From contig CM097883.1 in NCBI GenBank assembly GCA_044892505.1, forward strand, positions 198,896,001 to 198,960,000: DNA of 64,000 nucleotides, in the 5' to 3' direction. This document shows, piece by piece, positions 14,701-58,447 of this stretch; the first letter of the stretch is position 1, and every line of letters begins with the position of its first letter. This stretch comes from Schmidtea nova (lineage: Eukaryota). Position numbers and translations under genes: made by a program. Below the pieces are notes generated by a model. The model made no database searches, was not told where the DNA came from, and saw only the letters and a program-made list of their open reading frames with translations.

Positions 14701-15817
<1,117 letters not shown>

Positions 15818-23101: not shown

Positions 23102-23350
23102 CAGCGGTTCCCAAAGTGTTGTTGGCAAACTGATTTAATGTGGACGCCATAAATTTTAATATTTAGTTCCAATTAATTTGCCAAAGTAAATTTTATTGCT
23201 AAAAGTAGACAGCAAGTTCATTTATCTTAATTATACTTAAATATGTGCTTTTAATAAATCAAATTTACTTTTCCTTGTTTTTTTAGTGATGGGTCTTGAT
23301 AACTTCGGTTTTAATAGTGAGTCTCAACTGGTAAAGTTTTGGAAACACTC
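23102..23350. mobile_element. hAT (Charlie-like) MITE
   Basis: Ends CAGCGGTTCCCAAAGT and AAAGTTTTGGAAACACTC resemble CAGTGGTTCCCAAAC-type TIRs; no clear 8-bp TSD; flanked by a separate 12-bp inverted pair aaatagtgtcac / gtgacactattt. Confidence 0.6.
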
Positions 23351-24400: not shown

Positions 24401-24809
24401 AAAATTTTAGATCATGTAAAAACTAAGTCCCGCTGGGGCCTACTTTTTACATGTTAATTCGTTTGTTTAAATAAAGATAAAATTATATATATTCTAAGTT
24501 TGATTTAAATTACTGAATATTTTTTAGATATTAATTAAATAAATAATTAATAAATAATAAATAAATAATAATTATAATAATAATTAATAATAATTATAAT
24601 AATAATTAATAATAATTATAATAATAATTAATAATAATGACTAATAATAATTAATAATAAATTAATAATAATTAATATATTATTATATATTAGTTAATCT
24701 TTAATTTATTTTTATTTTTAATTTTTAAATAATTTTTTTTAATATTTCAGGGCCTACTTTTTACATGAGCACAACACGGGGCGTATTTTTTACATGATCC
24801 GAAATTTTT
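24401..24809. mobile_element. MITE-like element with about 30-bp inverted ends enclosing an (AAT)n tract
   Basis: aaaattttagatcatgtaaaaactaagtccc vs ggggcgtattttttacatgatccgaaatttt; gggcctacttttacatg repeated internally. Confidence 0.6.
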
Positions 24810-25121
24810 ATATATAATTATTTTTTAAAGAATTTTTATAAAGAAATTACTCAAATAAGTCGTAAATATTCATAAAAATGGAAAACAATTGCATTTAATG
24901 ATTAAAGTGGAAATATTTACTTGTTAAATGAAAAGTAATATTTGATGTGAAAAAGTATTCAAGAGAAATTTACTGATAGAAATATTCTAAAAAGAAACAA
25001 ATAATTAAATATTTTTCAACGTTGAAAAGTATTCATCAAAGTTTAAATTCACAGAATAATGTACTCAATATACCGATTGGTGGGTTGCTGATCGTCAACT
25101 TGACTCCAGCCAGGTGCTTTT

Positions 25122-25300
25122 GATTTTCTGAATCCTTTCATAGCGTTCAGTGTCAGCTGTCATCTCTGGAATGTCACCTCTCAATGGCAATGAACCGTTT
25201 CCTTCCGATGTTATGAAATCTTTCAAGGCCGCAATGAGAATCCAGAAAGATTTTGACTCACCGTGAATGTCAATATGACAAGGATCCTCTAAAAGAATCC
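25122..25300 (-). pseudogene. NAE1: Fragment of NEDD8-activating enzyme E1 regulatory subunit (APP-BP1/ULA1)
   Basis: ILLEDPCHIDIHGESKSFWILIAALKDFITSEGNGSLPLRGDIPEMTADTERYERIQKI closely follows the NAE1 segment SFWILARALKEFV..EG.G.LPVRG.IPDM.ADS..YI.LQ.V (recognised from memory). Similarity stops abruptly on both sides. Confidence 0.85.
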
Positions 25301-25317
25301 TGACTTTGATTAGAATT

Positions 25318-25935
25318 TCAGAAAGAAAAACAGTCGTTGGAATTGACTTCCTTGCTTTTCCGAAACTCTCTAAATATAGTGACAGAGGTGTCCTCTTTTG
25401 AGGCACATAATTTTAGATAATCCTCGCGTCTTTTACTGATCATTTTCCTCAGATATGGTCTCTCTTTATACGAATTTGGCCATTTTTCGAACTGAGATTG
25501 AAATGAAGTGAAAGCTTTCATCAAATTGTCTTTTCGATTTACGAGCATCGATTTTATATCATCAGTTTTATTAGTATCATTGCCTTCAGATCTATCTTCT
25601 ATATCATCAAGCATAAGTCTGGGATTGGACAAAATGCCCGTTCAAAAATAATTACAAAGTTTACAAACTGGAGAATTTTGAAGTTTTTCTGTAAGAGGTG
25701 TTCGACCAACATTCAATTTGCGCCAATAATCACTGTCAAATATCGGTGAATTAAATTGTAGCTTTTCTACAATTACTGAAGATCGCACTTCATCAGAAAT
25801 GATTGAATCTTCCGTAGACAACACATTAATTAAATCATCCATAAAAGAGCTCTCGATTTTATTGACCACATTTCGTAACAACTCATTATCAATAGAATCT
25901 TCGTCTTCAGCTAATTCTTCATTAGGAATTTTAAA
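25318..25935 (-). pseudogene. Broken acidic/charged ORF of unknown function directly upstream of the NAE1 fragment
   Basis: ORF-track pieces 25642-25881 and 25318-25632 are in the same frame, separated by one TGA; no domain recognised. Confidence 0.5.
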
Positions 25936-27446
25936 TAAAGAAATTAAAATCCAAAAATCGCTTTTTTAATTCATCAAAATTACAAAATTATTTTCATCCA
26001 TTAATAATCCCAAAGGCACAGATAAAACAGAACAAAAACTGTGACAAAGACCCAATCTCAAAAATTCCTTTTTAAATTCACTTAAAATTCACACTCCGCA
26101 ATTTTTTAATCAAAAAACTCCAAATCTAAAACTTACAAATAACACAGTAAAACAACACTAAAATAAGTCTCAAAGTTCTTTTTAATAAATCCAAAAAAAT
26201 TCATCGATTTATTTCTCAGCGAAATTGAACCACTCACGTCTGTGTGCACACGCTAAGAAATCCTCACAATCTCTAAATAAACGTGGAACAAAATAGCGGT
26301 TACTATTGATCGAATCTATAAAGGTTATACTTTGTCGTTATTTTTATCATTATTGTTGTAATTATCATGATCATTATCTATTACTATTATTGTAAAGGCA
26401 TTGTACTCCCCCCTATTTTTATTTATCATGTAAATAACTTAAATAATAAATAATTTTAAATAATAATAATAATAATAATAATAATAATTTTAAAAATTTT
26501 AAAAAAAAATAAATTTCCTATAGGAATATGACAAAATAGAAAAACGATAATGATTGTGAATTGATGAGGATTTCGAAGTTCAATGAAAATTATGAAAGTG
26601 GCGAAATTACAAAGAATTGATGAACTAAGAATCTACGAAATAAGAATTTATGAACCCAGAATTTAAGAAATAAGAAAATAGAAAAAGACAGTCCTATTAT
26701 CTATTTACTACGTGAGTAGCCTTTATACTTTTTTCAAATATAGTTTATTGGTTGAAAATTGTTATTTGTTTTTTTTTATATTTGAGTTATTTAAATCACT
26801 GTAAACACTACATAAGCAGGCACCCCAATTGTCCCCACAATAAGTTTTGGGAGACTCTTTTGGGCTCTTATCAATTTCTATCAATAAACAACAACAACAA
26901 CAACAAAATAGCATAATAACAAACATTCACCATTGAACCCTCCATCAACATAGTAATACTTCAACAGAATCATTTATGGCATTTGTCATTTGTTGAATTT
27001 TATGTAGAATTTTCGGATTATCTAAAGGTTGATCTGTGTTGATTTCTGTTGACAGTGCTACTTCGAGTAGTTTTTTAAAAAATTTGTTTGTGCTGACTAT
27101 AAATCGTTTTTACTGAAAGTTTCTGCCATATAAGATTTATATAGATTTCGATAAGACCGCCTAACGGATCGCCCCACAATCTCTCACAGCAATCAAGCCC
27201 CGCTCTCAATTATCCAATCTCTATCTAATTATTTTTAAAATATTTTAATAAGTGGGCGCGACCAATGACCTTGACGTTGTTATGGCTCCTATCAACAACT
27301 AAACATACAAAACATTAGTTTGACCATTTTGTAACCCATTACAACGTAACGTTGGTAATGCTACAAATGGGTTGATGTGTTACTGTTCGAGATCGTAAAA
27401 TTTCGTTTTTATAGAATTTTGGAGATTTTTATAGATAATTAATAAA

Positions 27447-27536
27447 TATAGTAATAAATAATTACTATAAATAATAAGTATAGTAATAAATAATTACTAT
27501 AAATAATAAGTATAGTAATAAATAATTACTATAAAT
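27447..27536. repeat. 32-bp tandem repeat x3, each unit palindromic
   Basis: Unit tatagtaat-aaata-attactata-aataataag; 9-bp perfect inverted arms. Confidence 0.9.
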
Positions 27537-27713
27537 GGAAAAGAAATAAATAAAGTAACAAATAATAACTTTAAATAGATAAATAATAATTATAGTAATA
27601 ATAATAATCAAAGGTTTAGCTGCTGAAATACGATAGAATAAGGCTATAATATAGTAAAACATTTTATTATTATTCAAATGTAATTGTTGATTGATTATGT
27701 CTTCTTTTAAATG

Positions 27714-27815
27714 ATTGAGTGATTATTTCTTCCTTTAGATATTGAGTGTTTATTTCTTCTTTTAGATGATTGATTGTTTATTTCTTCTTTTAGATCATTG
27801 AGTGTTTATTTCTTG
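27714..27815. repeat. About 28-bp tandem repeat x4
   Basis: Unit (g)attgagtgtttatttcttcttttagat. Confidence 0.85.
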
Positions 27816-29692
27816 CTTGCTTTATTTTTTGAATCCAGCTAAAAAATGTTTTTTGGCGATTTAAACAATTTTGCTTTTTTTATAAATAAATCAATATTTG
27901 ATTTTAATATAAAAATATAAAGATATAATATTTAATTAAATTACTGTAAATAAAAATATTGTACTTATATATAAATAACAGAGGCACTAAAAAGGGTTAT
28001 AAATAGTAAATAAAAATTACTAAAAAATAGTTAACTAAGAAAATAATAATAGTTAGGTCTTTTTGCGTAGCCGTGTTGGCGGTGTTTTGTAAATTGCTAT
28101 TTAAGCTCATTGAAAATCAGTTGCAGGTAGTAGCGAATTTTTGAGTGAACGAGAAACAAAATTAGAAAGTAACATTTTAGCAGAGATAATTTCCGTAGCA
28201 AATATTTGAAGAGATAAAATTGTTGAAATCGATCATTAGAGATAAAGTTGAAGATATTATTGTGGAACAAATTATCGATTCGAGATTTTATCAGATTAGA
28301 ATCCAGCTATTTGGTAAAATTTAATTTTTGGCCCTAACTTTCGATCACGGAGGAATAGTATTTTATACTATCTTTCTTCTTCAGTTCATACAACCTAAAT
28401 TTTAAGAGGGAACTATTACAGGTAAAAGTAACAACCAATTATGGGTTGTTACTATAGCGTAAATTTCGGGAATCCCACAAATTCTTATTGCCAATCTTTT
28501 AGTCGGAGCTGTTGAGCCATTTAGGTCCAGCTTTCGTTACTTAAATTGAATAACTGATTTTCTTTCTTAGCAACATTTGTAGCAATTGTGCTATTAACAT
28601 AATTTTATTTGTATATTGTTATAGATATTAATAAAACTTAGTTATAAAACATTGTTCCTGTTTTTACACGCAACAAAACATATATTTAATATATCATGGA
28701 TTATCGTTTTAGAGTCCGATAATGGACTAAATATATTAATCGTTAAATCATTTATAAATTGTGTTCTTCGTAACCACTGATACGAACCGAACAGATGTCC
28801 ATAAACATTGATTGTCGAATAATCGAAATTATAATTGACCGAACATCACAATGAGTTAAAGGGCTACCGATAGAAGGTTTAATGCCCATTTGAGCCCCTC
28901 ATTCATCAATTAATCTATAAATATTCAATACGATTTTTAACTAGCAATTTAAATAAATATTCACATCAATAATAATTTATTACTATTAAATCAATCATCA
29001 TGAACATCCAAATGAGAACATCAATTCAAAATTATATCTAAGTACACATATACTATCCACAGACAAATTGAAATTAATTCAAGCGTTTTTGAAAATGTTG
29101 AGATTTTGATGAGTTCCAGCAAGATTTTCCTGCCTTCGAGGTTGTTTGTCTCAAATTCGAGTTAGATGTCGAATAAACCGATTTGCAATGTCTAAAAGTT
29201 AAATATTCCACTCAATCCTAACAATTGGAATAAAAAACAAATCAAATATTCCATTCAATTGGTATGCTTTGCATCACACAAATACGCAAAACGTCGTCCA
29301 TGTATTCGATTCTTTCACAATACCACACTCAAACACATTATCACAACTCAATTCGGGGTCTATTGCCACTGAAAACACTCGATATTTACCGATCTTCGAA
29401 TATTAATTTTCCGAACTTAATCGGCATCTCTTGTTATTATTAATAAGTTTTTGGATTTTATATATCTTAATTCAGTGGAAAACTTTTATTTAGATATGAT
29501 TCTCTTTGTTATAAAACGGAAAATTTGATTTTTTAAATCAAATTTAATTTAAATTAAAAATTAAAAATAAATTTGTACTTAGGCCTTAGCAATGGCAACG
29601 GTTATCCTATATGGATCCTGATAGTTTAATTATCTTATACACCGGCGATTTTTTAAGTTTATGGGTTGGTTATTTTTAAATTTTATAGTAGG

Positions 29693-30522
29693 ATGGGCGT
29701 AGAATAAGGGTTTTAGAATTAAAATATTATACAGTGGGAAATTGAAGTTACAGAATAAATATACATGTAAATCGGATGGCAATGACAATTCAATAATCAA
29801 TGGAAAATATCAACTTCAATGACATTATGATTTTAGTGATTCTATATGATGATAATTTACTGTTGGTCTTATTTGACTTTTGTTTTGTGATGATAATTAT
29901 CTATTGTATATTCATGACAATTATGTGATTAAGCTGTGACTATCTGACAATTTTTATGGGATAATTTTATTTTGTTACTGTTAATAAAATATTGTTGACA
30001 ATTAATTTTTGTAATGACAATTTATAAGCATGAAATTTATCATTTGTGATCTTGCAAACATATATTGACATTTTTTATGGTGATGGACAAAGTTTGATAT
30101 AATTTTGAAAGAATATTTTGTTTTGAAAATATTTTATGTAAATTAATTTTTTAAACTATTTGGAAAATGGATTATATCTTCATTTATATTTTAATATTTT
30201 AATTCAATAAATTATAATAATAATAATAAAATAAATATATAATACAGATTGTTTAAATAAATTAAAAATAAATAAATTACTGTTTGTTTAAGTAAATTAT
30301 ATTTTTGACCTACAAAGGTCAGCAAAATGAAATAATATTCCAAAGTTAAAAAATAATTTTGAAAACAATTCTATTTTCAAAACAATTTCAATCAACTCAA
30401 GAGGCAAAATAACAATCATTATTGACAGATTAAGTGCCTTAAAATTAAGTATATAAACTGACTGATTTTTCAGTCAAATCACCCATAAAATCTTTGCATA
30501 AGAAGAATTTCATAGTTGTTAT
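29693..30522 (+). repeat. Long direct repeat, copy 1 (about 830 bp)
   Basis: Aligns base by base with 34634-35496 from atgggcgtagaata to gaatttcata.ttgttat, high identity. Confidence 0.95.
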
Positions 30523-30539
30523 CATAGTTGTTGAAGAAT

Positions 30540-33027
30540 TGAAGCAATACAGAGGGATAGATTTAATTCTGTGATTGATGCAGTAGAAATTCAGGAAATT
30601 GAAAAAGAAAAAACCAAGTCAAATGATAAAGATGATAATATCTGAATTATGTTAAAAATAGGAGAAAGACTAGTCCAAGTTCGAGTCGTAGTTTTGACAA
30701 CAAATATAGTTTTAATAGTTTGAGAGGCAGATCGAATAATCGAAATAATGATCGTTCGGAATTTAATTATATAAATACTTATGTGGGGAATTATAGAGAT
30801 AATTATAATAATTGAGATAGTAAGGGTCGAGTAAATTTTAATAAAGATGGTCGTTTTGGAAATAATGGGTACAATAAAAATAATCGTTTTAATTATAATC
30901 CAAGCAACAAGGGTAATTATTTCGAATATACTCGAACAAATCGATTTAACGAAAATAGAAATAGTGATAATAGAAACAATTTTAGACGAAGGAGAATGAG
31001 TCCCACTCGACAAAATTTCAATAGAGATAGACGACCGAGTCCGTTTAGTAATGATGGGAGAGATAAAGTTAATTTTCGCGGAGAAATATGATGCTTCAAC
31101 TGTCAGAAATATGGCAAAAGCATGTAAAAATGCACGAGTCGAATCTCTGAATAGAGTTCAATTTAAGAAAGAGCCTGAAATTAAAGAAATAAATAGTATG
31201 GGGGTCAAAGAATCGAATAATGAAATTGAGATGCTGAGAGACGAATTACAAGAATTTAAATCAAAATATGAGAGATTAATCGAAAGGAATAAAATTAATG
31301 TTTCGATAAATGAATTCAAAACTTTTACAAATGAAGTCAAGATAGATAATGAAGAGTTGAGACAGCAAAGAGAAAGAGATGAAGAGTTTTGAGCAGAATT
31401 AGATAGACAAAATATTTTGAGACAGGAATTAGAGGAATCTTTAAGAAATTATCTAGTAGATGATAATGAAGTGTTGAGAATATTAAAAAAAATTCATGTA
31501 GAAAGAATAAATCTGGAGAATCTGAGAAATTTGATGTCATTATTAGTAAGGAAACAAAGAGTAACACAATTATTTGAATTGGAAATTGAAATTAATGAGA
31601 TGTTGAAATGTTATAGCGATTACGTCCAAAAAATGAAAGATTACAGGAGCCACTAGAAATTACATTAGAAACAAATGATAAAGATACACCTAAAATAATT
31701 GTCCATAAACAAGAGGTACATGCGTGTACAAAGGTAAAAAAGATGAAACAAAAAGTCAAAGCAAATTGGTATGCCGACTAGGAATAAAGGATGAGATAAT
31801 ATTATATTTTTCTGGGATGAAGATGCAAAACGAAAATTTTTAATAGATTATGAGATAAACGCTAGTGAAAATTACGTCATAACAGTCTCAATAAAAAGAG
31901 GTTTAGAAGTAGTCAACAAGAAAATTTAAAAATTAGGCCTAGACGAAGAAGATAATACAGAGACCGCAAGAGGAGCTATAGGAGGTATAATGACCGTTAC
32001 GTTGGAGGAAAAGAAACTCCCAAAATCAAAGAATAGTAGCATTTCTGAGAAACTGAAAGAAATTGCAAACAAAACGTCAATGAAAGATAAGGACGTTGAT
32101 GTGCTAATAGAGTTAATAAAAATCATGCATCCTAAATTATATGAACACACAAAATCTCCATCATTTATTGTTAATATATATAAAAAATTGAAGTTATAGA
32201 GTCAGAGATTAAAGAATTAATAAAACAAGAAGCGGATGAAGACGAAGTTTTAGATATCTTATTTACTACTGGAATTGAGGTAATAGAATTATAACAGCAA
32301 TTGCGTATCTCATTTATAGATCATATGATGTTCTGAAGATGAAACCAAAGAAATTGAGTAAAATTGCTAAAAGGATACTTACAAAGTTACAAAATAATGG
32401 GATACCTTGGATAAACGCAAATGGAGGATGGGAAATCTTAAGTGATAAAAATGAATCAGTGGAAATAAATGCAGAGCAACAATGTATTTATGGCAAAGAA
32501 ATTGAAAGAAACCTGAAGAAAATGATAAATAAAACGATGGAAAAATCAGAGAAAAGTGATCATAAATCATTAATGTCTACAATAATAATGAAGATAGCAA
32601 TATTAATAAGTATAATAAGAAGATGTACGAACATGATAGTAAATGAATCTAAGAACCTTCATTATCCTCAACAAAAATCGTTGTATAAGAGATGGCTATT
32701 TTGTACTATAATGTTTAGCACATTATTATTACAAATAATAATTATTTGGATGAGTACGCAAGCCTATAGAAAATACACGTGGAAGAGACAGCGTTATTGT
32801 AGTCATCTCGTCCAATACGTCCCAATGGGATATACATTATCTATCGTGTGTTAAATTAAAATACCCAATCATAAACGGTCTATTATCTTATCCAATAATA
32901 TTTAAAAAATTATTTTACCTAATAGAAACTGATCAAATTTTACTATCTAAATGTCCAATAATTTACAAAAATCACCCATATCTAAATAGATATTATATTG
33001 CAAATAAGGGTAATCTCTATCTTTGCA

Positions 33028-33114
<87 letters not shown>

Positions 33115-34737
33115 TTTTAATTATTTTTTTTTAGAAAAATTAATTCAGAAGAGCCATCAACTTCGAACCCAACCAATCCAAAACCAATCAAATACACACA
33201 AACATACACATGCAAAACATACAAACACCCACTAACATTCTACAAGGCATTGCAAAACAACATAAAAACAGATGGAGAAGAACTCACAATCAGAAAATAC
33301 CCACATCAAGTATGTATACCCAACGAGTTCAAAGTAGACACAGAAGAAAGAGAGATGTACCTAGGTAAGTTCAACATAGCAAAGAGAACAAAACTGAGAG
33401 ACATTATAGGTTATTTTGAGCCAACTCAGAATGTAGATAAGGATACTAAAGAAGACAAAAGAATCCCACATAGGATAGTGATACACGCCACAAAAACAGA
33501 ACTCATATTAAAATTCAAAGAAACAACGTTAGGCAGCATAAGTAAAGCAACAGCGATATTTAAGACAATAAAAGACAGAAAAATGGCGAATGATTTTAAT
33601 AACATCCCGATACAAATTCATAATATACCTTGCGTAATGGCTATAGAAATCCTATATGTTCCAAAAATAAACAATCCTTTTGAAAAGTGAGAAATAATTA
33701 TGGCTGAGATCAGGATGAATGAAGATTTTATAGAAAACAGAACACCATTCACAAAGAAATTATTGACGATCGAGAAAAGAAGAGAGAGAATAGTTTTTAT
33801 GGATGTAAAAAAAAGTAAAAGAGTGTAATCATCAAATAAAACCCATATATATTTATATCAGAAAATATAATGGAGACTGTCTATTCAAAACGAAAATTAC
33901 CCCAAGGACCAAATTACAAATGGACAAAATAGATAAAGATTTAATATTGGGGTATATGGATGAATTCGAAGCACTAATAGAAATAAAAAACATTTATACA
34001 ACAGGATAATTATTGGGTTTGACATTATGGTAAAATGAAGAAGTATATACATTAGTTTAGATGATGTTTTCGGAATAAGAGAAAAGTCAAATACTTTTTA
34101 TACGAAAGCTTTTGCGAAGAATGTCCCGGAAGATAAGATCAAATTATCTAATCTTGCTTTCCAGATCATCAAACTTAAAAGTGATTTACGAAGAAATAAG
34201 AGACTTAATGACATTCTACTCAAACCAGAGCCATTTAGCGTATAGGACACTTGTATGATAGTCAGGATTCTATACATAATAACCGAAAACGACTAGGAAG
34301 ACCACATTGGGCAGCAAATGAAAGAAATAACTAGTAAATCCAGAAATGAGAATATTAATAACCAAATGAATCAAACAAAGGATGACGACGAAGTACAATT
34401 CATCAAATAAGAGCGACCAAATATTGAACTTATGGACACAATCGAAGGTGAACTATGACCAGAGCCAATGATCACCATAGAAGACAAACAAAAGGAAGAA
34501 TACATTACAATAATATATAATGAAAATATTAAAAAAATCACAGTAACAAAAGACGGAGAAGAAATAGAAATATACTTTGTTGAAAAAGGTTATGAGGACA
34601 TAACCTTAACGCCGCATGGAGTAATGTTAGAAAATGGGCGTAGAATAGGGGTTTTAGAATTAAAATATTATACAGTGGGAAATAGAAGGTACAGAATAAA
34701 TATACATGTGAATCGGATGGCAATGACAATTCAATAA
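30540..34737 (+). pseudogene. Train of broken + strand ORFs: R/N/S-rich segment, coiled-coil segment, and unknown ORFs (31990-32199, 32339-32854, 33250-33690, 34468-34737)
   Basis: Strong purine bias and long frames interrupted by single stops or frameshifts; no RT, integrase or protease motif found. Confidence 0.6.
33031..33112. repeat. (AT)n microsatellite
   Basis: Pure AT run seen directly. Confidence 0.98.
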
Positions 34738-35496
34738 TCAATGGAAAATATCAACTTCAATGACATTATGATTTTATAGGATGATAATTTACTGTTGATC
34801 TTATTTGATTTTTGTTTTGTAATGATAATTATATATTGTATAATCATGACAATTGTGTGATTAAACTGTGACTATCTGACAATTTTTTATGGGATAATTT
34901 TATTTTGTTACTGTTAATAAAATATTGTTGACAATTAATTTTTGTAATGACAATTTATAAGCATGAAATTTATCATTTGTGATCTTGCAAACATATATTG
35001 ACATTTTTTATGGTGATGGACAAAATTTGATATAATTTTGAAAGAATATTTTGTTTTGAAAATATTTTATGTAAACTAATTTTTTTAACTATTTGGAAAA
35101 TGTATTATATTTTCATTTATATTTTAATATTNNNNNNNNNNNNNNNNNNNNNNNNNNNNNNNNNNNNNNNNNNNNNNNNNNNNNNNNNNNNNNNNNNNNN
35201 NNNNNNNNNNNNNNNNNNNNNNNNNNNNNNNNNNNNNNNNNNNNNNNNNNNNNNNNNNNNNNNNNGTAAATTATATTTTTGACCTACAAAGGTCAGCAAA
35301 ATGAAATAATATTCCAAAGTTAAAAAATAATTTTGAAAACAATTCTATTTTCAAAACAATTTCAATCAACTCAAGAGGCAAAATAACAATCATTATTGAC
35401 AGATTAAGTGCCTTAAAATTAAGTATATAAACTGACTGATTTTTCAGTCAAATCACCCATAAAATCTTTGCGTAAGAAGAATTTCATAATTGTTAT
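34634..35496 (+). repeat. Long direct repeat, copy 2 (contains an N gap)
   Basis: Second copy of 29693-30522; begins inside ORF 34468-34737. Confidence 0.95.
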
Positions 35497-37250: not shown

Positions 37251-39902
37251 TTTATTTCAAGAAAAATATATAATCAAAATAATTTGATATTTAAACAAAT
37301 TTCCAAAAATATTTTTCTAATTAAAAATATTTTTATATTTTAAAAATCAATCTTAAAATTAATTTTTAAAATTTAAAAATTTCTTAAATATTCCAACTTC
37401 CTCATATCCTTCTTCTTAAAAAATTTTTAAGTTTTTCCACATTTCTTTCGATCATTTTACCATTTTCATTTCTTAAGATGTATCGTCTGTCATGCACTTT
37501 CTCGATCACTTTGTATGGACCTTCATATCTGTCCTGGCTTTTCTTGCGTGTTTCTAATTTTACTAACACTTCTTCTCCTACATTGAATTTTCTCCTTGTT
37601 TGTTCTTCTAGTTCTTCCTTTACCGGTATTTCTTTGGACCCGTACCATTTTTCCCTGCTAATATTTTTTCCAAAAACTATCTCTGTCGGGCTTTTCCCTG
37701 TCGTTTTTTGTTTGGTTGCATTTAATGTGAATTCGACTTCTGGTAATATCTCTGCGAAGTCCGTCTTCCTTTTATCCTGTAGAGTAGCATTTATCAGCTC
37801 TCGTATTGTCCTGAATTGTCTTTCTATCTGACCGTTTGTTTGGTGATGGTATGGACTCGAAAAACATAATTTAATATCAAGCATCTTTGTGAATTCTCTC
37901 ATCATTCCTGATTCAAACGCCTTTCCGCAATCAACACTTATCTCCTTTGGGGATCCAAATCTTAAAATCCACTTTTCTAAAATCGATTTCTTTATTGTTT
38001 CTTCGTCTTGTTTTGTTATCGCTGTCAAGACTTGATACTTATTATACTGGTCTATTATACCCAATATATACTTCTTACGTCCTTTTGTTTCTTTCAACTG
38101 TCCACATATATCCACGAATATAATTTCGAACATTTCATTTGATTCTTGTTTCTTTACTGGTTCTTTTGTTGTTATTGTTATAGCCTTGGTTTTTTGACAA
38201 ATCTCACAACTTCGAAAAATTTCCTGAATCTGACTCCACAGGTGTTTTCCAACATATCTATCTTTCATATAATATACTATCTTCTCGACTCCCGCATGAC
38301 ACAATAGTCTATATATTTCCTTTATTGTTTCTTGTAACTCATTTTCAGGTATCATCGTTTTCTTTCATACTTCTTCTACAATTCCATGTTGGTTGTTGCT
38401 TCTCCCTTCTTCTCTGATCAAGTCTAGTAATCTGGTTTTTATCTTTCCTTTCTTAGCTTCTTCGTGAGCCATTTGACACTGAACACATGTGTCACATTTA
38501 GTTCTCGACACCATGTCTGCATTTTGGTGATTAATACCCTTTCTGTATTCTACGCTTATATCTAAACTGCTCAAATAATTGATCCATGTTTGGAATTGTG
38601 AAGTAATCGGCTTTTTGGTTGTCATCATAAACGTGATTGCCTTGTGGTCTGTCCTGAGTGTGAATCTTCTTCAGTAGAGATAGTGCTTAAAATGAATGCA
38701 AAAATAATATACCGCCAATAGTTCCTTTCTTGTAATACAATATCCTTTCTCATGGCTCGTCATCGAGTGTGATCCATACGCAATTACTCTTTCCTTTCCA
38801 TCTTTATCTTTTTGTGAAAGTACTGCTCCGATGGTATCAAAACTAGAGTCAGTATCTAAAATGAACTCCTTTTTCAGATCCAGAAAACACAAGATTGGCG
38901 CCGTCGTTAGTGCTAATTTCAATCCCTCAAACACGCTATTCGTTCCTTCAGTCCATTCTAATTTTTGTTACTCGGTCCGCTACATAATTGTTCTAACACT
39001 GATGAATCTTCTATAATAATTGCAAATACCTAAAAAGCTTCGGAGTTTCTTTACACAATTTGGCTTCCCAAAGTTTTGTATGGCCTAAATCTTAGATGGA
39101 TCTGTCTGTACTCCTTCCTTGCTGATTATGTGTCCTAAGAATCTGATTTCTTTCTTTATTATTTGACACTTTTCTGGATTAATCCTTAGTCCTGCTTCCT
39201 CAATCGCCTTTAACACTTCTCCGAGTATTATATAGTGTTTCTCTTTACTGCTTGAATAAATCAAGATGTCGTCCAAATACAGCATTGCTCCCTTTATTTT
39301 GCCTAATACTTTTGCCATCATTTTTGGAACGTACCTGGTGCTGCTGCAATTCCAAACGGCATTCTGTTGAAACAGTATTGTCCGTTCTTTGTTGAGAAGG
39401 CTGTTTTCTCTTGTGATTCTTCTTCTAATTCCACTTGGTAATATGCATTACCTAGATCGATTGATCTGAAAAAGACGGATCCTCCTAACAACTCCAACAT
39501 CTCGTCTATGTTTGGCATCAGGAATGCCTGCCTCTCTGTTACCGCCCTCAGCTGTCTGAAATTCAAGCATAGTCTAATATCCTTTTTCTCTTTTTTCCAT
39601 ACACATATTAATGGCGTGTTCCATGGAGAGTTACATTTCCGTATAATCCCATTTTCGTACAAATTTTGTATTGCTTCTTCAATCTTTAATTCCAAATTTA
39701 ATGGTTGGCGATATGGTTTTATGTTTTTTTATGTTTTTTTATGTATTTCAGAAAAAATATATAATCAAAATAATTTGATATTTAAACAAATTTCCAAAAA
39801 TATTTTTCTAATTAAAAATATTTTTATATTTTAAAAATCAATCTTAAAATTAATTTTTAAAATTTAAAATTTAAAAATTTCTTAAATCTTACAACTTCCT
39901 CA
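37251..39902 (-). mobile_element. Ty3/gypsy element lacking PBS, gag and protease: LTR-RT-RNaseH-integrase-LTR
   Basis: Near-identical LTRs 39742-39902 (TG...CA) and 37251-37404 (TG...AA); TAAC(T/G) target duplication at 37246-50 and 39903-07; RT motifs (LCLNFRQL, YLDDILIYS), RNase H (FILDTDSS, YCITRKELLAV, TDHKAI), PPT aagaagaagga. Confidence 0.92.
37402..38355 (-). CDS. Gypsy integrase, uninterrupted 317-aa frame
   Basis: H-x-H/C-x2-C zinc finger (LCHAG...CEICQK), rve core (VDICG, VDCGKAF, NGQIERQFRT), C-terminal FNVGEEVLVK...YEGPYKV; stop TGA coincides with the first bases of the 3' LTR. Confidence 0.9.
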   Translation of the reverse strand: MIPENELQETIKEIYRLLCHAGVEKIVYYMKDRYVGKHLWSQIQEIFRSCEICQKTKAITITTKEPVKKQESNEMFEIIFVDICGQLKETKGRKKYILGIIDQYNKYQVLTAITKQDEETIKKSILEKWILRFGSPKEISVDCGKAFESGMMREFTKMLDIKLCFSSPYHHQTNGQIERQFRTIRELINATLQDKRKTDFAEILPEVEFTLNATKQKTTGKSPTEIVFGKNISREKWYGSKEIPVKEELEEQTRRKFNVGEEVLVKLETRKKSQDRYEGPYKVIEKVHDRRYILRNENGKMIERNVEKLKNFLRRRI

Positions 39903-41073
39903 TAACGAATAAAGGAAAGATCGGCTAGATGCATTATTGGAACGCACAAAGAAGCCAGAATCTTGCCAATTACCAATCAGGAACAAGAGCCTGCAAAGAG
40001 AAAGGGGCTTGTTAACAAAATCAATGATCAAAGTCTGTTGTACATTGGAAGTCTGATTTCTCAATGTACAACAAGAACACTGAAAGATATCCAAATAAAA
40101 ATCTCTGAGAATTAGAATAAGAGTTACCGCATCGACAGTACACAATGCGATTTGCCAAATGCAAATCACGTGTAAGTCGCTATCAAGGATGAAAGATCAA
40201 GTAAACTCAATCGAAACCATAGAAAAGCGAAGAGTTTATGCTACTAATTATACAATGAATGCACCAACAGAAACATCAAAACAAATATTTAGTGACGAAT
40301 CAGGCTTTAAAATTCATCTAATAAGATCATTTGGAAGATCAAGAAAGGAACAAAGGCTTTCTCCATAGTTCCTGTAATAAGGGGAAGAAATATCACCTTG
40401 ATAGTTGCTTGTAATAGCAGAAGAGTGATCCATTATAAGATAATCAGAGATTCTTCTTGCAATTGCTTAAGTTTTGCTGATTTCATCAGAGAATTATTGA
40501 TTTGCATTGATCTTTGCATGGATCTTGGTTTATTTTGGATAACACCATAATACATAAAACTATTGATGTGAGAAGCCTGTTTGTGAATTTAGAAAGATAC
40601 TTGATGAATTTCTTTTTACCTTCTTCGTATATGCTCAATCCAATAGAGCAAGTCTTCTCTAAAATCAAGTTCGTTTTTAAAGGCAGACTCACTCATGACC
40701 AGTATAACAATACTCAAAGTTTTGTTTGGTTGATGAATATGGCGCTTGAAACTTTAACTTCTGAAGATCTGAACAACTATTTTGAACTCATGGTTCGAAA
40801 TATTTCACTGGCTTTAGTCAATCATGTTTTTGAATAAATACCTTATTTAATTTATTATTCTTTATCCTTTACTGATTACATCGTCAAAATAACATTAATT
40901 TAAAAATATTAATATCAATAATCAATAATATCAATAATTCCCATAATGGATGACTATAAATCAAAATTTCTTTAAATAAGTACGCAATATTTCGGTAAAG
41001 CCTTTATCAATACACTTTAATTATTAATACACACAAAAGCGTTTTCACTAGGCCATGTCCATAATGTTATGCG

Positions 41074-44000
41074 GTGTATCAGCATCTCAGCGATGAAGTC
41101 AGAGGAAGCTTCATCAAGACCGAAGCAGCAATGAAGATAGCCTTCTCTATTTCGATGTTTCTTGCCTTTGAGAAATTGAAGAGTCGATCAAGGAGCAACG
41201 AGCCTGTCGATGTTTATCTGGCCGAACTAACATCTCTGGGTAAGTTATCTGGAGTCAATGATGCTGTTATTAGATGTTCATTCGTTACTGGACTTCCAGC
41301 GTCTATATCACAGTCACTACAGGCTATTCCGAACATTGAAACAATGGCAATAGATGCTGTCGTACAGATAGCTCGAGCTATGTTAAGTAATGCAGTTTCT
41401 CAGCAAAGTTGTATGCTGGGAGTAAAAGAAAGAAGAATTGCCAATCCTAATGACCAAATGTGTTCGGTTTGCGGAAAGAAATGGCACAATGAAAATTCAT
41501 GTTTCAGAAAAAGCAAACAATGTTGGATATGTGGTGATAAAGCCCACATCGTGCGATCGTGCCCAAAGAAACAGACGGGAAACGCTATTGGAGTAGCACG
41601 TGCGCCAGTGTTCACTGCGGAAAATCAATAATGGCGCTGCAGACTGTCATTGTAACTGTCAACGGAAGGACTTCCGAAGCTTTAATAGATTCAGGTTGTA
41701 CCCAATCTATTATTTTGTTCTCGTTGGACAGCGGATCGTATGGAAAGAGCGAAAGTGTGCTGGTGGCTGATGGATCATTGGCCAGGAGTTTGGGAACCGT
41801 CGAGGTTAACATTGTTATTAGAAAGACAAGTCTGCGAGTGGTCTGCCTGGTGATGGAAAACCTTCCATGAGATTTTGGTGTAATTTTGGGAATGGATGTT
41901 ATAGGAATGCTCGGTGGGGTGAATATATCACGGCAAAGGGTATCGTTTCCTTTGGCAAGCGCCATGGGGAGAAAGTCCGATTTTCTGAGGGCAGACGAAC
42001 GACATACCAAGTCTCTGGAAATTAGAGATGAAGACTTTCAAGCCGATTTCCCTTCCGGCAATTGGACAGTGAGCTGAAAATGGAAAAATCAACCTCCTGA
42101 ACTTGGTAATACATGTCCCAACTATGGAATTAAACCAGAGCTACGCAATGGATTCGACGCAGAAATCACAGAATGGAATAGGAACAGCTGGTTAATGTCT
42201 TATGAAGGAAATTCTGATGGTATACTACCATTAATGGCAGTCTAACGTTCAGTGAATCAGTCTAACAAAGGAAAAATAAGACCAGTACTCTACTATCGTG
42301 AACTGAATAAATATGTAACGAGCCACACGGGTCAGAATGAAGCTTGCAACGAATCTTTATGGCGTTGGCGAAGATTCGAGGAGAAAGTCGAGATGCTCGA
42401 TCTGAGGAAAGCCTATCTACAAATACACGTAAATTCCGATCTGTGGGATTTTCAAAAAGTCAGGTTTAAAGGAAAGGTATATGCTTTGACGAGATTGGGT
42501 TTCGGCCTCAATGTAGCACCAAAAATAATGTCTGCCATAGAGGGAAGAGTGTTAGGATTACGCAAAGACATTAAAGAGGCAACCGACAGTTTAATTGACG
42601 ATATCATTGTAAACACGTCAAAAGTACAATTAGACGAAGTTGTGCGTCATCTGGCAAGATACGGGCTAGCAGTTAAAACTCCGGAAAAATTCGATACTTC
42701 TTAAGTTTTGGGATTACAGATCTCTAGAGGCTAGGAAGGCCGATTTTGGAGGAGAGGAAATGTAATCAATGAGATGGGACAATATGAAGCGATGACGAGG
42801 AGGGAGCTGTTTTCTTTGTGCGGTCAGCTGGTCGGTCACTACCCGGTTGCTGGCTGGTTGCGAATTGCATGTAGATATGTTTAGCGCCAGAGTACCGGTT
42901 CAACGTGGGAAGATACAATTAGAGATTATGCTTCCATGATAATAGCTGAAATTATTGAACTCGTTAAGAAAGATGAAAGAAAAAAAGTCATCGAGTAAAA
43001 ACTCACGGATCTTCCGAGATGCTAATTCGTGGGCGTCTACAAATTGTTCATGAACTTCAACTGGCATACAACTTAAAGATAGCCGTGGAGTTTGTCCCGA
43101 CCAAGGAAAACAAGGCCGACGTTTTTACTAGAGTTAAGAAAGCTTGGCTTACATGGGTTAAACAAGTAAGTTGTTTTACTATATCGATATCCGACAGAAT
43201 AAGGAAGTGCCACGAGGCGCATCACTTCGGAGTGGATCGAACTCTGTATTTCGTAAGGAAGTTGCTTCCTAACGTATCTCGTGGAGTGGTACAAGGTGTG
43301 ATATCAAACTGTATTAAGTGTCGAAAGATAGATCCGGCACCTGTAAAATGGAAACATTGAAATTTGGCGGTGAAGTGTAATTGGACCAGATTGGCGTTAG
43401 ACGTGACTCACTACCGGAATAAGCGTTATTTGACGTGTATCAACTGGGACCGAGTAGATTCGCAATATGGAGAGAGATTTGTAACTAGGATGCTGTGACC
43501 GTTACTAGAATCTGTGAACAAATATTCAGAGAACACGGACCTCCGTGCCAGTTGCTCATGGATAATGGCAGTTCATTTAGGTCTCGTCAATTAGAGGAAT
43601 TATGTGCAAAGTGGGGTGTTAGTCGTATTTTTCGATGCGCTTACCGACCATCGGGAAACGGAATTGTTGAGAGGAACCACAGGACCGTTAAGAGAATGGC
43701 GGCCCGGACGGAAGGGGACCCTCTTGACATGGTTTACTGGTTCAACATGAGCTCCAACAGTGACTTTAGAGCGCCTTCGCGACAACTATTTACATACGAA
43801 TGGAAGGATATGTAAGAAGTGGAAATCGTGAATGACGAAATTCTGAGTCGTTATGCTAGAGAAGACAAGGTATTCTGTAAGCAGCCGAATGCAAGATGTA
43901 CAAGTGTTTGGACGGAGGGTACCGTCTCAAACGTTCACTCGTCCATGAATATCGAGGTAGATGGTGTCCCCAGGTACATAGCTGAAATCAGACAGGTTGA

Positions 44001-46182: not shown

Positions 46183-49100
46183 TATATATACCGCCATCCA
46201 AAATCTGGAATTCAAAATTTATTAGAAAATTTGCTTGAGAATTTTCGTACAACCAACTGGTAAAATTCTCAATTTAACGGAACTCTGCCAAAACTTTTGT
46301 CAAATTAAAGTTGAGCGAATAAACCTTGTACAGCCTTTTGGAACGCCGGAAATTATAAATAAATCCATGTCTAGAATCCTATTACATTTTTATTGAAATG
46401 CGATACGGTATTCAAAGAAGAAAATGATTATTTTATTATAGTATTATATTTATATTTATTTATATCAATCTACATAACTCTCACAACTACACAAAAGTTC
46501 GGACAAAATAAAAGCTATCAAAATTATACATCCAACTCGTAAATTATCATCGCTCACATGAACAACTTCTTCACTTCATCACGAAAGGAATCGCAAAGTC
46601 ATTTGGAAAATCGAATTTATAAAAAGCTTCCAACTAGCAACTCAAAGTGTAATAGAAATGTCAAGATTGTACTAGAAAATATATATTACATTTGATTTTA
46701 TTCATTGGAACTTCACCTTGATCGGAAAATTATTCATAAAAACTTTATTTTTGATGAAACTTTGAGTATTCGATATTTTCAAATGAATAATCTCGAAAAT
46801 TTTATGTATACTTTATTTGGAAAATTCGTATTCGATGGAAGTTATTTTTTGTAAATATATATTTCTATTATCAAAAATAATATGAAAACCATTAATAATT
46901 CAAATTAAACTTTTATAATATATTTTTTTATAATATAAATTTTTACAAATTTTAGAAATTTAAATTCAAATAAATCTACTTTTGAAAGTTATAAATCCTA
47001 AAATTGATTATTAATTTGCAAAATTAATTTTTTACATATATATTATTTTATAAAATACCCCTCCTAAAAGCACGAAATAACCAATAAACTCATATTTGCA
47101 AATAATTACATCTTTTTCACTCATTAGCATCATATATATCTAATACCAAGCACGAAATCTTTTTCATCTAATAATACATTTAAATTATATCGTTTCACTC
47201 ATTAACATCCCATACACAGCATGATGCATCCAGAGAATCTATACAAGAATCACCTCACTCAACAAATTCCCATAAAAATTCATCATTTCAGTAAATAACA
47301 TCCCATACCTTAACTTATTACATTAAAATTTCTCTCATCTAGTCTAACTCTTAAACACCATTTAGATTGTGATCCATATAGTCATGTAATTCAATTTTTA
47401 CTTAAACCCTTCATAATATAAAAGATAGTATTATTAATCAGCGAGAGGATGTTTATTAAGCCTTTAAACCTATTTTGCCCCAACATAAAATTTAATCAAT
47501 TTATATTTAGTTTACCTTCATAAAAAATATTATTTATTATAATAGCATATTTAGAAATATCATTTAGAAATTTCCAGGTATAAGAGTTGCAATACGAATT
47601 ACGTGTATAAATCATTAAAATAAGAAGTTACCACCAAAAGGGTGACACAAAGCTGAATTTATTTAACTATATTTTCACAACATCAAACCCGAGTTCGAAC
47701 GTTAAGCTTTTCCTTAAATAAAATCCCATAACAGACAGGACCATGAACAGGATAAGAGCCCGAATTACGAGAAAAGTTTTCCGTAAAACATCACCAATCA
47801 ATTTTTTTGCTTCAAAATTGTGCAAGTTAGATAAAAATGAAATTCCCGTCTGGAAATTTGTAAATCCAATAAAGAGAAATTTTCCTCAATGAGAGAAGAT
47901 CCCCAAAGTGTCAACAGTGTCATTCATTGCATCATTTTTATTCAAAATGTCGAATTTATTATCCACCGAAGAAGAGAAATTTGTCACTCCGAAGAAGTGA
48001 CTGAATAGAAGAATTCCGACTATTTGATAAAATTCCTTCATAATCTCTTTGAATTACTATGACCAGATTCAATAAATCGTAATCATCTAAATAAATCGAG
48101 GGAATAAAATAGAATTTAAAAAGACGTACTCTAAATATTGAGACGGGAATATAAATTCCAGAAATTTTAAAATAAAAATTTACGAGAATAATCGATAATA
48201 ATAACCTGGAAATAGGATCAGCCAATAAGATTTGAATAATTAAATACAGTAAGCGTATTCCAAAAATACTATATAGTATTATTAAATAATGTTACTGTAA
48301 GACACGGGGTGGTTTCCACAAAGTCTCTGATATTTTCAATATAATTCAAATGGTCTAGAACCTAAATTCAATAAACTAGCTTCGAAACCGTAAATACCAA
48401 CCGTTGCCTGTTACTAAGGCCTTGCAAATATTTTAAATCTAAAATTATATTTTAGCTTTCATAATTTAAATTAATTTTAGGTTAAAATCAATTTTCCGTT
48501 TTATTACAGGGAGACCAATACCTAATTGAAAATTTCTCACAAAATTAAAATATATAAAACTTAAAAACTTATTAATAATGAAAAGAGATGCCGCTTAGTG
48601 TCGTAGAATTAATTTCGAATATCGGTAAATAGTGAGTGTTTTTCAATGCAATAGACCCAGATTTGAGTTGTGATAATATGTTTGAGTATGCTTTTGTGAA
48701 TAAAATGGATATATGGACGATATCTGCGTATTTGTGTGATATAACGCATACCAATCGAATGGAATACTTAATTTTTAGACAACACAAATCAGTTTATTAG
48801 TTATCTAACTCGAAATTGAGACAGTCAACGTCGACGGCGAGAAAATCTTAATAAGACTTCTCAAAACCTTAACATTTTCCAAATATATGGGAATTAATTT
48901 AATTTTGCCAGTGGCTAGTATATGTATACTTAGAAATAATTCTGGAGTGATGTATCAACCCGCTTGTATTTTGTTGTTTACGATGTTTTATTTGAATAAA
49001 TTAATAAATTCTTATTGATGTAATTTATTTTATTTTAAATTGCTGATTAAAATGAGTATCCGTAGATAAATTATCGAATAAAGGACTCAAATGAGCATCA

Positions 49101-49200
49101 AACCTTCTATCGGTAGCCCTTGAACCCATTGTGATGTTCGGTCAAACGAATTTTCGATTAAACGATCTCATAACTCATCACGAATTAGAACACTAATTAT
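46183..49200 (-). mobile_element. Copy B of the unclassified large element family
   Basis: 48400-49150 is the reverse complement of the copy A leader (28800-29605); 46183-46250 and 47050-47260 resemble copy C 54041-54110 and 55750-56010. Confidence 0.65.
47667..48225 (-). pseudogene. Broken ORF with hydrophobic N-terminus and C-terminal transmembrane-like segment
   Basis: LADPISRLLLSIILVNFYF... (47959-48225), then after a frameshift ...RKTFLVIRALILFMVLSVMGFYLRKS...VKI* ; one internal TGA. Confidence 0.45.
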
Positions 49201-49479
49201 TAAATAACTGTCCTATGTGCAATTTCCCTCCCTGTATTAGGTGCATGGTCGCTGCATCTTCCAACTTCCAAAAGGAGTCAGGCGAGAGACCAATTCCGCC
49301 CTATAGTCGCGAAACCACTAGGACCTAACCTTATTGGTTTTAAGGAGAATATGAGGGGTTACTCGCTAAATGTATGCATAATACAGTCAAAATGTAAAAT
49401 ACCTTTATTACCGAATTCGGATTTACAAATTCGATTAAACAAACAATTGTCAGAGTAAAAAAGGTCTCAATGACGCATA

Positions 49480-50384: not shown

Positions 50385-50921
50385 ATGCAATACATCCATT
50401 ATCCTGGCATTATTCTGACTGACTTTGCTGAATCCAGCGTGAAAATCAATAGTTCTTACTACTCCAACATCGTGCAGCAAACAAGGAAGGCACGACGCAA
50501 GAGCAGAGTGTGTGGTCTCTATTTTTATACGATAATGCTTCCATCTACACCAGCAGCGTTTCCATGGCTAAAATTGAGCGTTGCGGGCTCAATTTGCTTC
50601 CTCATCCACCATACAGCCCCGATTTGGCTCCCTCCGATTTTTTCCTGTTTAACCATCTTAAGAAGCATCTGCGGGGCCAGGTGTTTGCCAACAAACATGA
50701 TTTTAGAGCAGCCGTGGAGAGTTTTCTGGGATAAAAGCCTCCAGAATTCTTCAAAAACGCCTTCAAAAACCTCGTTATTCGCTGGGAAAATTGTGTCAGT
50801 GCAGAAGGAAATTATTTTGAGAAATGATGCCTATTTACCATGTTTGTTCTAAATACAAAGATTTGTGTTGATATTTTAAGTGTTTTTATTTTAGTCTCAC
50901 GACTTATTGGGAGCACCACGT
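50385..50921 (+). mobile_element. mariner (DD34D) transposase 3' half and right end
   Basis: YDNAS...HPPYSPDLAPSDFFLF with 34-residue spacing, RWENCVSAEGNYFEK* (stop 50825-27); terminus ttattgggagcaccacg. A separate pogo-like end TA|CCGTATTTTCGCG lies at 50043. Confidence 0.9.
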
Positions 50922-51314
50922 TGGTAATAGATATTATCCCTTTATCAGTTGCGCTTAAAACCAAACGAGCTATCCAGTCAATTACAGTCCTGGCACAGTG
51001 GTCATTTTTAGCAGTTATCGATCCATTTCTTACAGGAATAACGTTGCTATGCGACAGGTAACACATGATTGAATAATGTTTATATGGCGGTTTCTAAGAG
51101 TGAGTAAAAGTCAACCATTAACTCAGCACAAAGCTCATATGCTTATTGGTTCTCTGAATACTATAAATAGTTCTAATATAGTCACCAGGTAGTAACTATG
51201 AGCACATAAGTAATGGCATTTTATGCCAAGTCATGAGGGTGTCTTGGTAATAATAACTGTAGTCATATTAACAGTTAAATTTAACAACCTAAACACCAAT
51301 ACTTATCTTGCCGA

Positions 51315-56192: not shown

Positions 56193-56448
56193 TCATTCAG
56201 TTTGAGGGATAAGAATCTCCGGCAAAAATTTTTCCAGTCCACAGTGCTTGAAGGGCCAGTTCCAACATATTCTCTTCAAGAAATTTTCTAAAATTGTTCA
56301 AAATAAATTATAATTCTGAAATAATCAAAATTTTACTTGGTCGGTAGAGCGGGCAATTTTGCTTCGTAGGAGCTTGAGTTCTAATTGGATTGACCCATGT
56401 TTGGTGGGAGAATTTTCCTCTGACTTCGTAGTTTCCGGGGAGATCCAT
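56193..56448 (-). CDS. Putative spliced 68-aa mini-gene (exons 56448-56337 and 56287-56193)
   Basis: ATG at 56448 just after a ttctatag acceptor; 49-nt GT-AG intron 56336-56288 restores a frame: MDLPGNYEVRGKFSHQTWVNPIRTQAPTKQNCPLYRPKNFLKRICWNWPFKHCGLEKFLPEILIPQTE*. No homolog recognised. Confidence 0.5.
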
Positions 56449-58447
56449 TTCTTGTTGATCTGAACTATAGAAATCGTTAATTAATCAATTTAGTGAAAAA
56501 TTCAGAAAATTACATTTAAAATTAATATAATTTTTAAATTGAGTAAATTTGTCCTTTTGATTAAATTAGCAATTTTAAACAAACGGAAATTTTATTTTTA
56601 TTATTTCTAAACTGGATTAAATTACGGTAATAATTAAAATTTTTCTTAAAATTCAAATGCAGATTAAAAGTTTTCTATAAAAATATAATATTTTATGTAT
56701 TAATTATCATAAAATGCAATATTGGTAAAATATAGGGTTATATTAGTGTTTTTGATGCTCGGAATAATTTATTTGGATGCAATAATGAATTTATAGTTGT
56801 GTAGAGTGTTTATGTTGAATTTCCGATAAATTTTTATTGAAAGCTTATGGATAAATCATTGAAGAAGGGACAAAAATGGGCAATAAACCTTCTATCGGTA
56901 GCCCTTGGACCCAGGAGATATTCGGTCAATCATAGTTTCGTATTGACGACGCTCACTGATTGCGAATACCCACCCACTTGTTACAGTACCAACGTTACAT
57001 AGTGACGGGTAACAAGATGGTAGTTTAAATGTTTTATGTGTTGAGTTGTTGATGAGAGCCATAGAAACGTCAAGGTCATATTGACGATCAACAACCCACC
57101 AGATACAATACCAACTTCACCTAGTGAAAGGTAACTTACAGCTAAACTCAATTTATGCGGTTTGAGACAATTAATCTTTTCATTGAAATGCAAATTTCTT
57201 TTAAATTTCTGTTTAAAAACAATTTCTTTAATATTTATTAAACCATATTCACTTTGATTTGAAAAATTGTCATTTTATTAAATATTTGCCTTGTTTTAAA
57301 TCGATATTTATTGTTCAAATTTGACATTTTTGAAATAGAGTTTTTTTGTATTATAAAATAGTTTCTAATTTACTTCTACATTGAATGCCTAATTCAATTC
57401 TCTCTTTGGGTTCGATATTATTGATAATCATTTTTATTATTAATTTAATAAATAAATTTAGATCTTTTTAATTGGAGAAATGCCAATATGAATTCTCCTC
57501 AGATTAAGCTAATATCCAATAGATATTCAAAAAATATTTATTTAGATGAGAAAAAAGAGGTAATAATAAATAAAATATTAAATTATTACAATTTAGCTGC
57601 ATAATTATTACATAAAATATTATTATTAAATAGAAAAAATTTGATATAATATTAGTTTTATCACGAAAAAGAACTTTATAATATTAAAATGAGAAATTTG
57701 GTTTATTTACGTTGATTGTTTATAACATTTTTCAAATCGGTTATTATTAATTTGTTATAACAGTAGTTAGTAAGTTTTATTATCAATATATTGAACGCTA
57801 TTTTGAAACCCATTGAAAGCAAATAAACTAGAATTACCCCTGTTTTTTATTTTTTCATAAATTCACATGATACATCTGATTTCTTGCATACTAATTTGTA
57901 CTGTAATAAAAAAGGAAAATTAACGCATTTTTTACACGAAAACAATTAATGCATTAATATTTTAAATTCTAAGCCATAATTTCCCTTTATATTATATAGA
58001 AAATTAAAAATTATAATACAATTATTTTTATAATAAGTTTTAGAAAAGCAATGTAATAATTGCTGTCATTCAGTCTGTGTCTTAGGTTAAATTCATGAGT
58101 TGTGCTGCAGGATTTTATATAGATTGGTGATATGGTTTTTGTTTAGTAGAAAGTGTATTTTTCATTTTGCATCAAATATATTGTTGTAATGGTTTCAATT
58201 AAATAATTATATAATATTTTCACTTGTTAGACGAAATAAATATCATTATTATTACTTATTATTACTTATCTATTTAGTTATTTGTGAGTTATTATTATTA
58301 ATTATTTGTTAGTTATTTGTGATGTGTGCTCGTTAATGTGTATTGCTGAGTGTTTAAGGATTTGAAAGAGCCCGAAAGAGTCTCCAATTGGTGGAGGGAC
58401 AGTCGGGGTGAATGCGTATGTATATGGGTATGATTACTGTAACTATA

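Follow-up and report, generated by a model that had tools for sequence, protein, structure and literature searches.

Three copies of a 22-nt motif lie in the analysed window, the whole 64-kb stretch of DNA considered here, at 49100-49121 on the forward strand (copy A), 56885-56906 on the forward strand (copy B) and 28859-28880 on the reverse strand (copy C). All three are exact over 22 of 22 positions, confirming the occurrences, coordinates and strands reported in the first-pass annotation. The window contains no further match with three or fewer mismatches, and three matches were obtained in 0 of 100 shuffles (chance expectation 0). On its 3′ side the motif is followed by a second block, TTCGGTCAA, which begins at 49137, 56921 and 28843 (reverse strand), i.e. 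after 15, 14 and 15 nt in A, B and C, respectively (49137-49145 and 56921-56929 on the forward strand, 28835-28843 on the reverse strand), bearing out the earlier statement that a second invariant block lies about 15 nt downstream. The window has an AT-rich, eukaryote-like composition and is full of transposon relics, with DDE, hAT, integrase and reverse transcriptase (RT) matches in the 25 of its 63 open reading frames that were scanned. The three motif copies are not three special loci, each lying within a dispersed non-coding repeat. None of the reading frames runs open through the motif in A, B and C alike, and a word resembling a nuclease in a single frame of A, considered as a coding remnant, is broken by a stop in C.

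Elsewhere in the window, tandem repeats of 60-197 nt at 14670-15710 include several DEAD-box helicase exon pieces with intron and lie in a region, extending to about 21538, which we take to be a DDX3-like gene; a Helicase_C match supports this helicase neighbour. A recent duplication (29693-30522 and 34634-35496; 95-99%, about 4.95 kb apart), whose second copy spans an assembly gap, flanks open reading frames at 30.6-34.7 kb without a clear Pfam family and may represent an LTR-like pair. Two broken gypsy-like RT/integrase regions are located at 37253-39904 (−) and 41065-43815 (+), the former bracketed by a 160-bp direct repeat (93%).

Copy A extends over 48400-49321 (+) and comprises a 5′ arm common with C from 48400, the core, and a 3′ arm that is equal in length to that of B and just 50% like it. 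Its end, placed by colinearity with B (shuffle P 0.04), is formed by a weak hairpin (49281-49300) and CTAG at 49318-49321, and the next base is G. Copy B, near the dominant subfamily of the repeat, spans 56560-57102 (+) as judged by contig depth, which is already high at 56560, the start of the stretch compared, with no left end seen there; it closes with CCAG, followed by A. Copy C (27250-29604, −) joins an A-type 5′ arm to the core and to a B-like 3′ arm (79% to B), and its end, with the terminal hairpin partly deleted, reads CTTA followed by T. Copies A and C are alike over ~790 bp with 79% identity, and B is alignable with the two only from ~135 nt upstream of the motif; upstream of 56755 the alignment of the B arm to A or C does not rise above shuffles. 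One core is found in three arm combinations. Copy C is interrupted by ~1.4 kb of other sequence (27378-28793, without strand), which has no second copy in the 64-kb window and no clear terminal repeats, and beyond which the similarity to B returns. A fourth copy, D (about 50860-51115, +), is decayed, with 62-63% to B (nhmmer E 6e-8), and brings the density to four copies in 64 kb. Some 80 nt past the end of C, the segment 27126-27170 (−), which we take to resemble a planarian spliced leader, ends in ATG, and the sequence after it begins with GC, not a GT donor, and continues as a frame-broken reading frame; a trans-spliced mRNA may have given rise to it as a retrocopy. A second shared segment, which lies past both C and B in like orientation (26809-26925 (−) and 58307-58422 (+); 69%, E 8e-9), carries words reminiscent of a decayed minimal hammerhead, with no Rfam match in the 58.3-kb copy.

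The three-way alignment of A, B and C comprises 208 columns, 57% of which are invariant. The longest invariant run is the motif, with 22 columns, and the second longest has 9; column shuffling produced a run of 22 once in 20,000 trials. For the two copies most alike, taken as a pair, such a run is unremarkable, occurring in 9% of shuffles. Identity over the 45-nt core is 91% for A/B, 87% for B/C and 96% for A/C, and over the 130 nt upstream of the core 65%, 70% and 78%, respectively. The contrast between core and flanks is real, as had been proposed together with a particularly strong divergence of C. The latter does not hold generally, considering the similarity of C to A, and C looks divergent downstream because the ~1.4-kb interruption splits its core from its 3′ part. 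Between the 22-nt and 9-nt blocks A and C agree and B differs. A core without function of its own, homogenised as shared homology for recombination or conversion between the abundant and the rarer subfamilies, would fit the switch at the core by which C joins the 5′ arm of A to a B-like 3′ arm, the extreme abundance of donors and the fact that the motif is not uniquely invariant in the dominant subfamily. This is nevertheless a distinctly unlikely explanation, as conversion should not stop at blocks of 22 and 9 nt with a variable spacer, and it leaves unexplained why the core stretch stayed shared at all.

The motif of copy D (50935-50956) retains 15 of 22 bases, compared with 62% over the 128 neighbouring columns (P 0.36), and decays evenly with its flanks. 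The description of the motif as invariant in all copies stands for three copies but not for this fourth one, which had been overlooked. Copy D also bears on whether host selection keeps the motif at these loci as a co-opted enhancer, promoter or insulator, to which we give a very small probability. The agreement of A and C within the core (44 of 46 positions, compared with 79% overall; P 0.002, fixed window) and the vicinity of the copies to the DDX3-like gene and to a putative exon that we take to be NAE1 argue for such selection. However, the A-C difference can be lineage divergence, D decays evenly, and a repeat with 10^4-10^5 copies is unlikely to be selected locus by locus in three of four neighbours.

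That abundance derives from contigs of four public DNA runs, all of a single study that is possibly the source of the assembly, which were aligned to A and B. On A, contig depth at 49079-49119 reaches 272,000-776,000, against about 10-35 for unique pieces, while the arms of A lie orders of magnitude below the motif at the 80% cut-off. On B, depth is 0.65-1.4 million across 56885 to 57084 in runs X1, X3 and X4, and drops to the single-copy level after 57101-57109. The ratio of motif depth to unique depth is 22,000-31,000 on A and 77,000-100,000 on B, where summed contig depth is not copy number and is to be read as an order of magnitude only. The repeat abundance is in the order of 10^4-10^5, in agreement with four copies per 64 kb. 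The 3′ arm of A (49202-49283) also occurs repeatedly, its depth being roughly 20-40 times that of unique pieces, which points to a small subfamily and not to decayed unique DNA. At the left side of the A-type arm, contigs extend to about 48330: one piece starts at TC 48336 after 61 unrelated letters and another reaches 48329.

The sharp 3′ end of the family (57099-57102, +; CCAG in B) is marked by contigs departing at 57100-57102. At 57101, 261, 431, 293 and 282 contigs leave in the four runs, entering unrelated flanks (agreement 0.41-0.42); neither a poly-A nor a repeat tail follows this position. Located ~217 nt downstream of the motif, the end is built of a 19-nt hairpin, 12 nt, CCA-R and then T. 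Eight of the 12 junction strings shown, with 55 further rows beyond them, break at 57101 or 57102; these strings derive from tandem joints and not from typical insertions, and they have T at 57103 in 8/8 and A or G at 57102 in 6/8. No contig boundary is listed at the motif and, among the rows shown, the loose ends just upstream look homologous, indicating that the motif is internal to the repeat. Towards the left, depth falls 3- to 4-fold in the deepest run and 25- to 45-fold in X1. Since this fall varies about tenfold between runs and tracks GC content (10-26% upstream), it is no proof of 5′ truncation and may be library bias.

Variation within the dominant subfamily was tabulated on B for alleles of at least 10%, giving a complete table of 37 rows. 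No such allele occurs at 56885-56907 (23 nt, including the motif), at 56909-56940 (32 nt) or at 56947-56976 (30 nt). For A, 40 rows of a 411-row table were seen, and that table was left out of this comparison. Inside the dominant subfamily the motif stands alongside other invariant blocks, and the first-pass expectation that it would be more conserved than its neighbours holds only in part, with the 32- and 30-nt downstream blocks equally invariant there. What distinguishes the motif is that it belongs to the part which the dominant subfamily shares with the rarer A-type copies that have different arms.

The suggestion that the motif is an RNA structure core found no support. Folding of its region, as DNA or RNA and on both strands, does not exceed that of shuffles (z −1.2 to +0.8), and two-sided changes were found in none of the 14 and none of the 12 pairs predicted. 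Nor did anything in this analysis point to a packaging signal or a promoter. The motif contains an 8-of-10 dyad, CTATCGGTAG. Structure sits instead in the 3′ arm, in hairpins within the last 130 nt. Comparison with C shows 17 of 17 pairs retained in the long imperfect hairpin of B (56974-57020, +), 2 of them through two-sided and 3 through one-sided changes; only two sequences enter this comparison, for which 134 of 500 shuffles were equally good. The terminal stem of B (57045-57095, +) is composed of a 9-bp outer stem on the 19-nt hairpin (57068-57086), with a 14-nt bulge; it has z-scores of −4.1 as DNA and −3.3 as RNA, with 0 of 200 shuffles as good, and its minus strand folds similarly. The terminal hairpin of A is weak (z 0.0). 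Ten of the 14 variable positions in 56974-57101 are unpaired, although half of all positions are paired; three of the other four retain a G-T pair and one breaks its pair unless linked to the partner's allele. This placement of variable positions relative to the pairing is suggestive only. The three common 3′-hairpin alleles that form G-T pairs do so on the plus strand, a pattern compatible with RNA and with single-stranded DNA alike. A word found repeatedly, both in the core and in the terminal hairpin loop, is GGTCA (56924 and 57074; 27270, 27325 and 28840 on the reverse strand). Within TCAAGGTCA we take it to be a nuclear-receptor-like half site, and it may be a repeated binding word.

The structured 3′ arm raises the question of a retroposon, SINE-like or mobilised by a Penelope or LINE element, in which the motif would be a central conserved domain and the 3′ arm would be recognised by the reverse transcriptase. 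The sharp 3′ end, the depth falling leftwards, the tolerance of G-U in the hairpins on the plus strand and the ACCA after the terminal stem, a tRNA-like end exactly at 57101, are consistent with this possibility. So are the reciprocal arm combinations, as mollusc SINE superfamilies, in the available part of their description, likewise join a shared centre reciprocally to different 5′ and 3′ modules (PMC4758252). The present repeat differs from SINEs in having no tRNA head, A/B boxes, tail or duplication and a shared centre of only about 55 nt. A tRNA-derived SINE was rejected, with 0 tRNA genes detected by ARAGORN and no 3′ tail. Rfam gave four weak matches in the window, none of them on the motif, and region scans at chance level. 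With no tail, tRNA head, Rfam match or convincing duplication, and with a leftward fall that follows GC content and may be library bias, a retroposon appears unlikely, although one without a tail is conceivable.

The hammerhead and HDV-like geometries do not fit either. Type I hammerheads present CUGANGA, stem II, GAAA, stem III, UH and stem I in register. The candidate at 57049-57089 has U in place of C3, lacks a closing pair in stem II and places five bases, not two, between stems III and I, and its would-be core positions A9 and A13 are polymorphic (57055, 57065); this failure also speaks against the retroposon. Metazoan non-LTR retrozymes with type I hammerheads, as far as the accessible text describes them, are similarly abundant, low-GC, hairpin-rich repeats (PMC7229834), and the few tandem joints among contigs of this repeat are a further likeness. 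In contrast, the repeat has no intact hammerhead, is mostly dispersed, has one fixed end and a unit of at least 540 bp. HDV-like ribozymes fold as a nested double pseudoknot (P1, P1.1, P2, P3) with a catalytic C. By eye the motif resembles P3-loop-P3′-P1′, but no P2 partner follows and P1 is mismatched in A and B; homology continues upstream of the would-be cut and there is no Rfam match.

A solo LTR has TG...CA ends and a 4-6-bp duplication. The motif could then be an R/U5 signal or, in a DNA transposon with terminal inverted repeats, a subterminal transposase site, and a window full of DDE and gypsy relics agrees with either class. The motif overlaps AATAAA or ATTAAA in B and C, B ends in CA and has a 7-nt inverted match at 56402, and A has an 8-nt inverted match at 48309. 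The poly-A-like word is missing in A, however, the two inverted matches lie in different registers in DNA where 7- to 9-nt matches are frequent, and neither candidate has a flanking duplication, the flanks of the solo LTR candidate 56402-57101 being unlike. Both classes are highly improbable.

The sharp end has a Helitron-like architecture. Canonical Helitrons, according to the portion of the review available, have 5′-TC and 3′-CTRR ends, carry a palindrome of 16-20 nt some 11 nt before the end, and insert between A and T (PMC4067079). The B palindrome (57068-57086, 19 nt) lies 12 nt before 57099-57102 and has this canonical geometry. In the available sections on Helraiser and Helibat-type Helitrons, a 19-nt palindrome is likewise found about 11-12 nt from a fixed 3′ end (PMC4778049, PMC5876387), and the 19-nt hairpin of Helraiser, 11 nt from the end, is given as the termination signal, with read-through creating new 3′ ends (PMC4778049). 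Also as in the Helitrons so described, the repeat has no tail, no convincing duplication, and exchangeable 3′ arms; T follows its end in the 8 junction strings and in C, but not in A or B. It departs from these canonical elements in its dominant end, which contigs suggest to be CCA-R and not CTRR, and in a longer, structured 3′ arm. With left ends undefined, no convincing target-site duplication was found, and no Rep/helicase partner was present among the 25 of 63 window open reading frames scanned. For Helraiser, the available text confines the determinants of cleavage to the terminal 40 bp and mentions no internal core that would be required (PMC4778049, PMC5876387).

A parallel for the core is provided by DINE-1 (mini-me), a non-autonomous Helentron of Drosophila, which is, in the available parts of its descriptions, also a very high-copy non-coding repeat with a 3′ stem-loop (PMC2374699, PMC4067079). 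Both DINE-1 and the present repeat keep a short internal core across otherwise diverged forms. The DINE-1 core of 33 bp, extended to 90 bp, was taken from its conservation to imply a role in transposition, to judge from the text available (PMC2374699). DINE-1 differs, in the same excerpts, by 13-bp subterminal inverted repeats, TT flanks and a core near the 5′ end, whereas in the present repeat some 200 nt lie between the core and the sharp end, which is CCA-R and then T; the two are likened by architecture and not by sequence. A candidate for a Helentron-type subterminal inverted repeat is the left-boundary word of A and C (29602, −), which matches 57061-57069 inverted at 8 of 9 positions by eye, presuming the common C allele at 57065; for B or A no subterminal inverted match longer than 9 nt was found. 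Helentron TT flanks were seen in 2 of the 8 junction strings, the other 6 having A/G then T.

Taken together, the motif forms the inner core of a dispersed, non-coding repeat of very high copy number, for which we favour, with roughly even confidence, a non-autonomous Helitron-type transposon whose core is probably a needed protein-binding site. The chance that the repeat works like a non-autonomous Helitron, without being filed as a member, is similarly balanced. The proposal of a selected cis element is plausible in that the core is better kept than its flanks, but in so high-copy a context the target of selection is most likely the element as it replicates, not these loci, and the motif is likely preserved for the element's own copying rather than for host use. 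Under the Helitron reading, source elements would have needed the core to be copied, leaving it fixed while the arms drifted or were exchanged, and inserted copies would then decay evenly, like D. The core would be read as double-stranded DNA by a partner transposase or by a recruited host factor; a double-stranded reading is favoured because the fold is neither stable nor covarying and the dyad is imperfect. The terminal hairpin would stop rolling-circle copying, as in Helraiser. A variant, given only a slight probability, is that the last 217 nt, with the motif, the second block, two long hairpins and the terminator, would serve as the single-strand origin of a rolling-circle transposon, the motif being a priming or factor-loading signal through which the displaced strand is made double-stranded. 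For Helraiser, circles in single-stranded form have almost no activity, and how they become double-stranded is left open in the part of that study available (PMC5876387). If such an origin were true, natural variation across so large a family would allow its mapping.

The motif, on either strand, is absent from the full-text literature, and no description of this family appears among the matches listed for planarian Helitrons; the family may already be catalogued in repeat libraries (Repbase, Dfam, Schmidtea library). Collection scans with 18- and 17-nt parts of the motif returned one metagenome and two viral matches, with similarity over at most 17-23 nt, which were taken as chance, and a sigma-70 scan, irrelevant to a eukaryote, was at chance level. 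Unclassified repeats make up a large fraction in planarians (PMC10899757). As it stands, the situation is an ordinary one, the conserved core of a non-autonomous transposon family with a putative function, and such cores are already known from fly repeats (DINE-1). If correct, the present reading puts a name to a repeat that is among the most abundant in this genome and points to a short internal signal within it, and tens of thousands of identical sites could matter for host chromatin.
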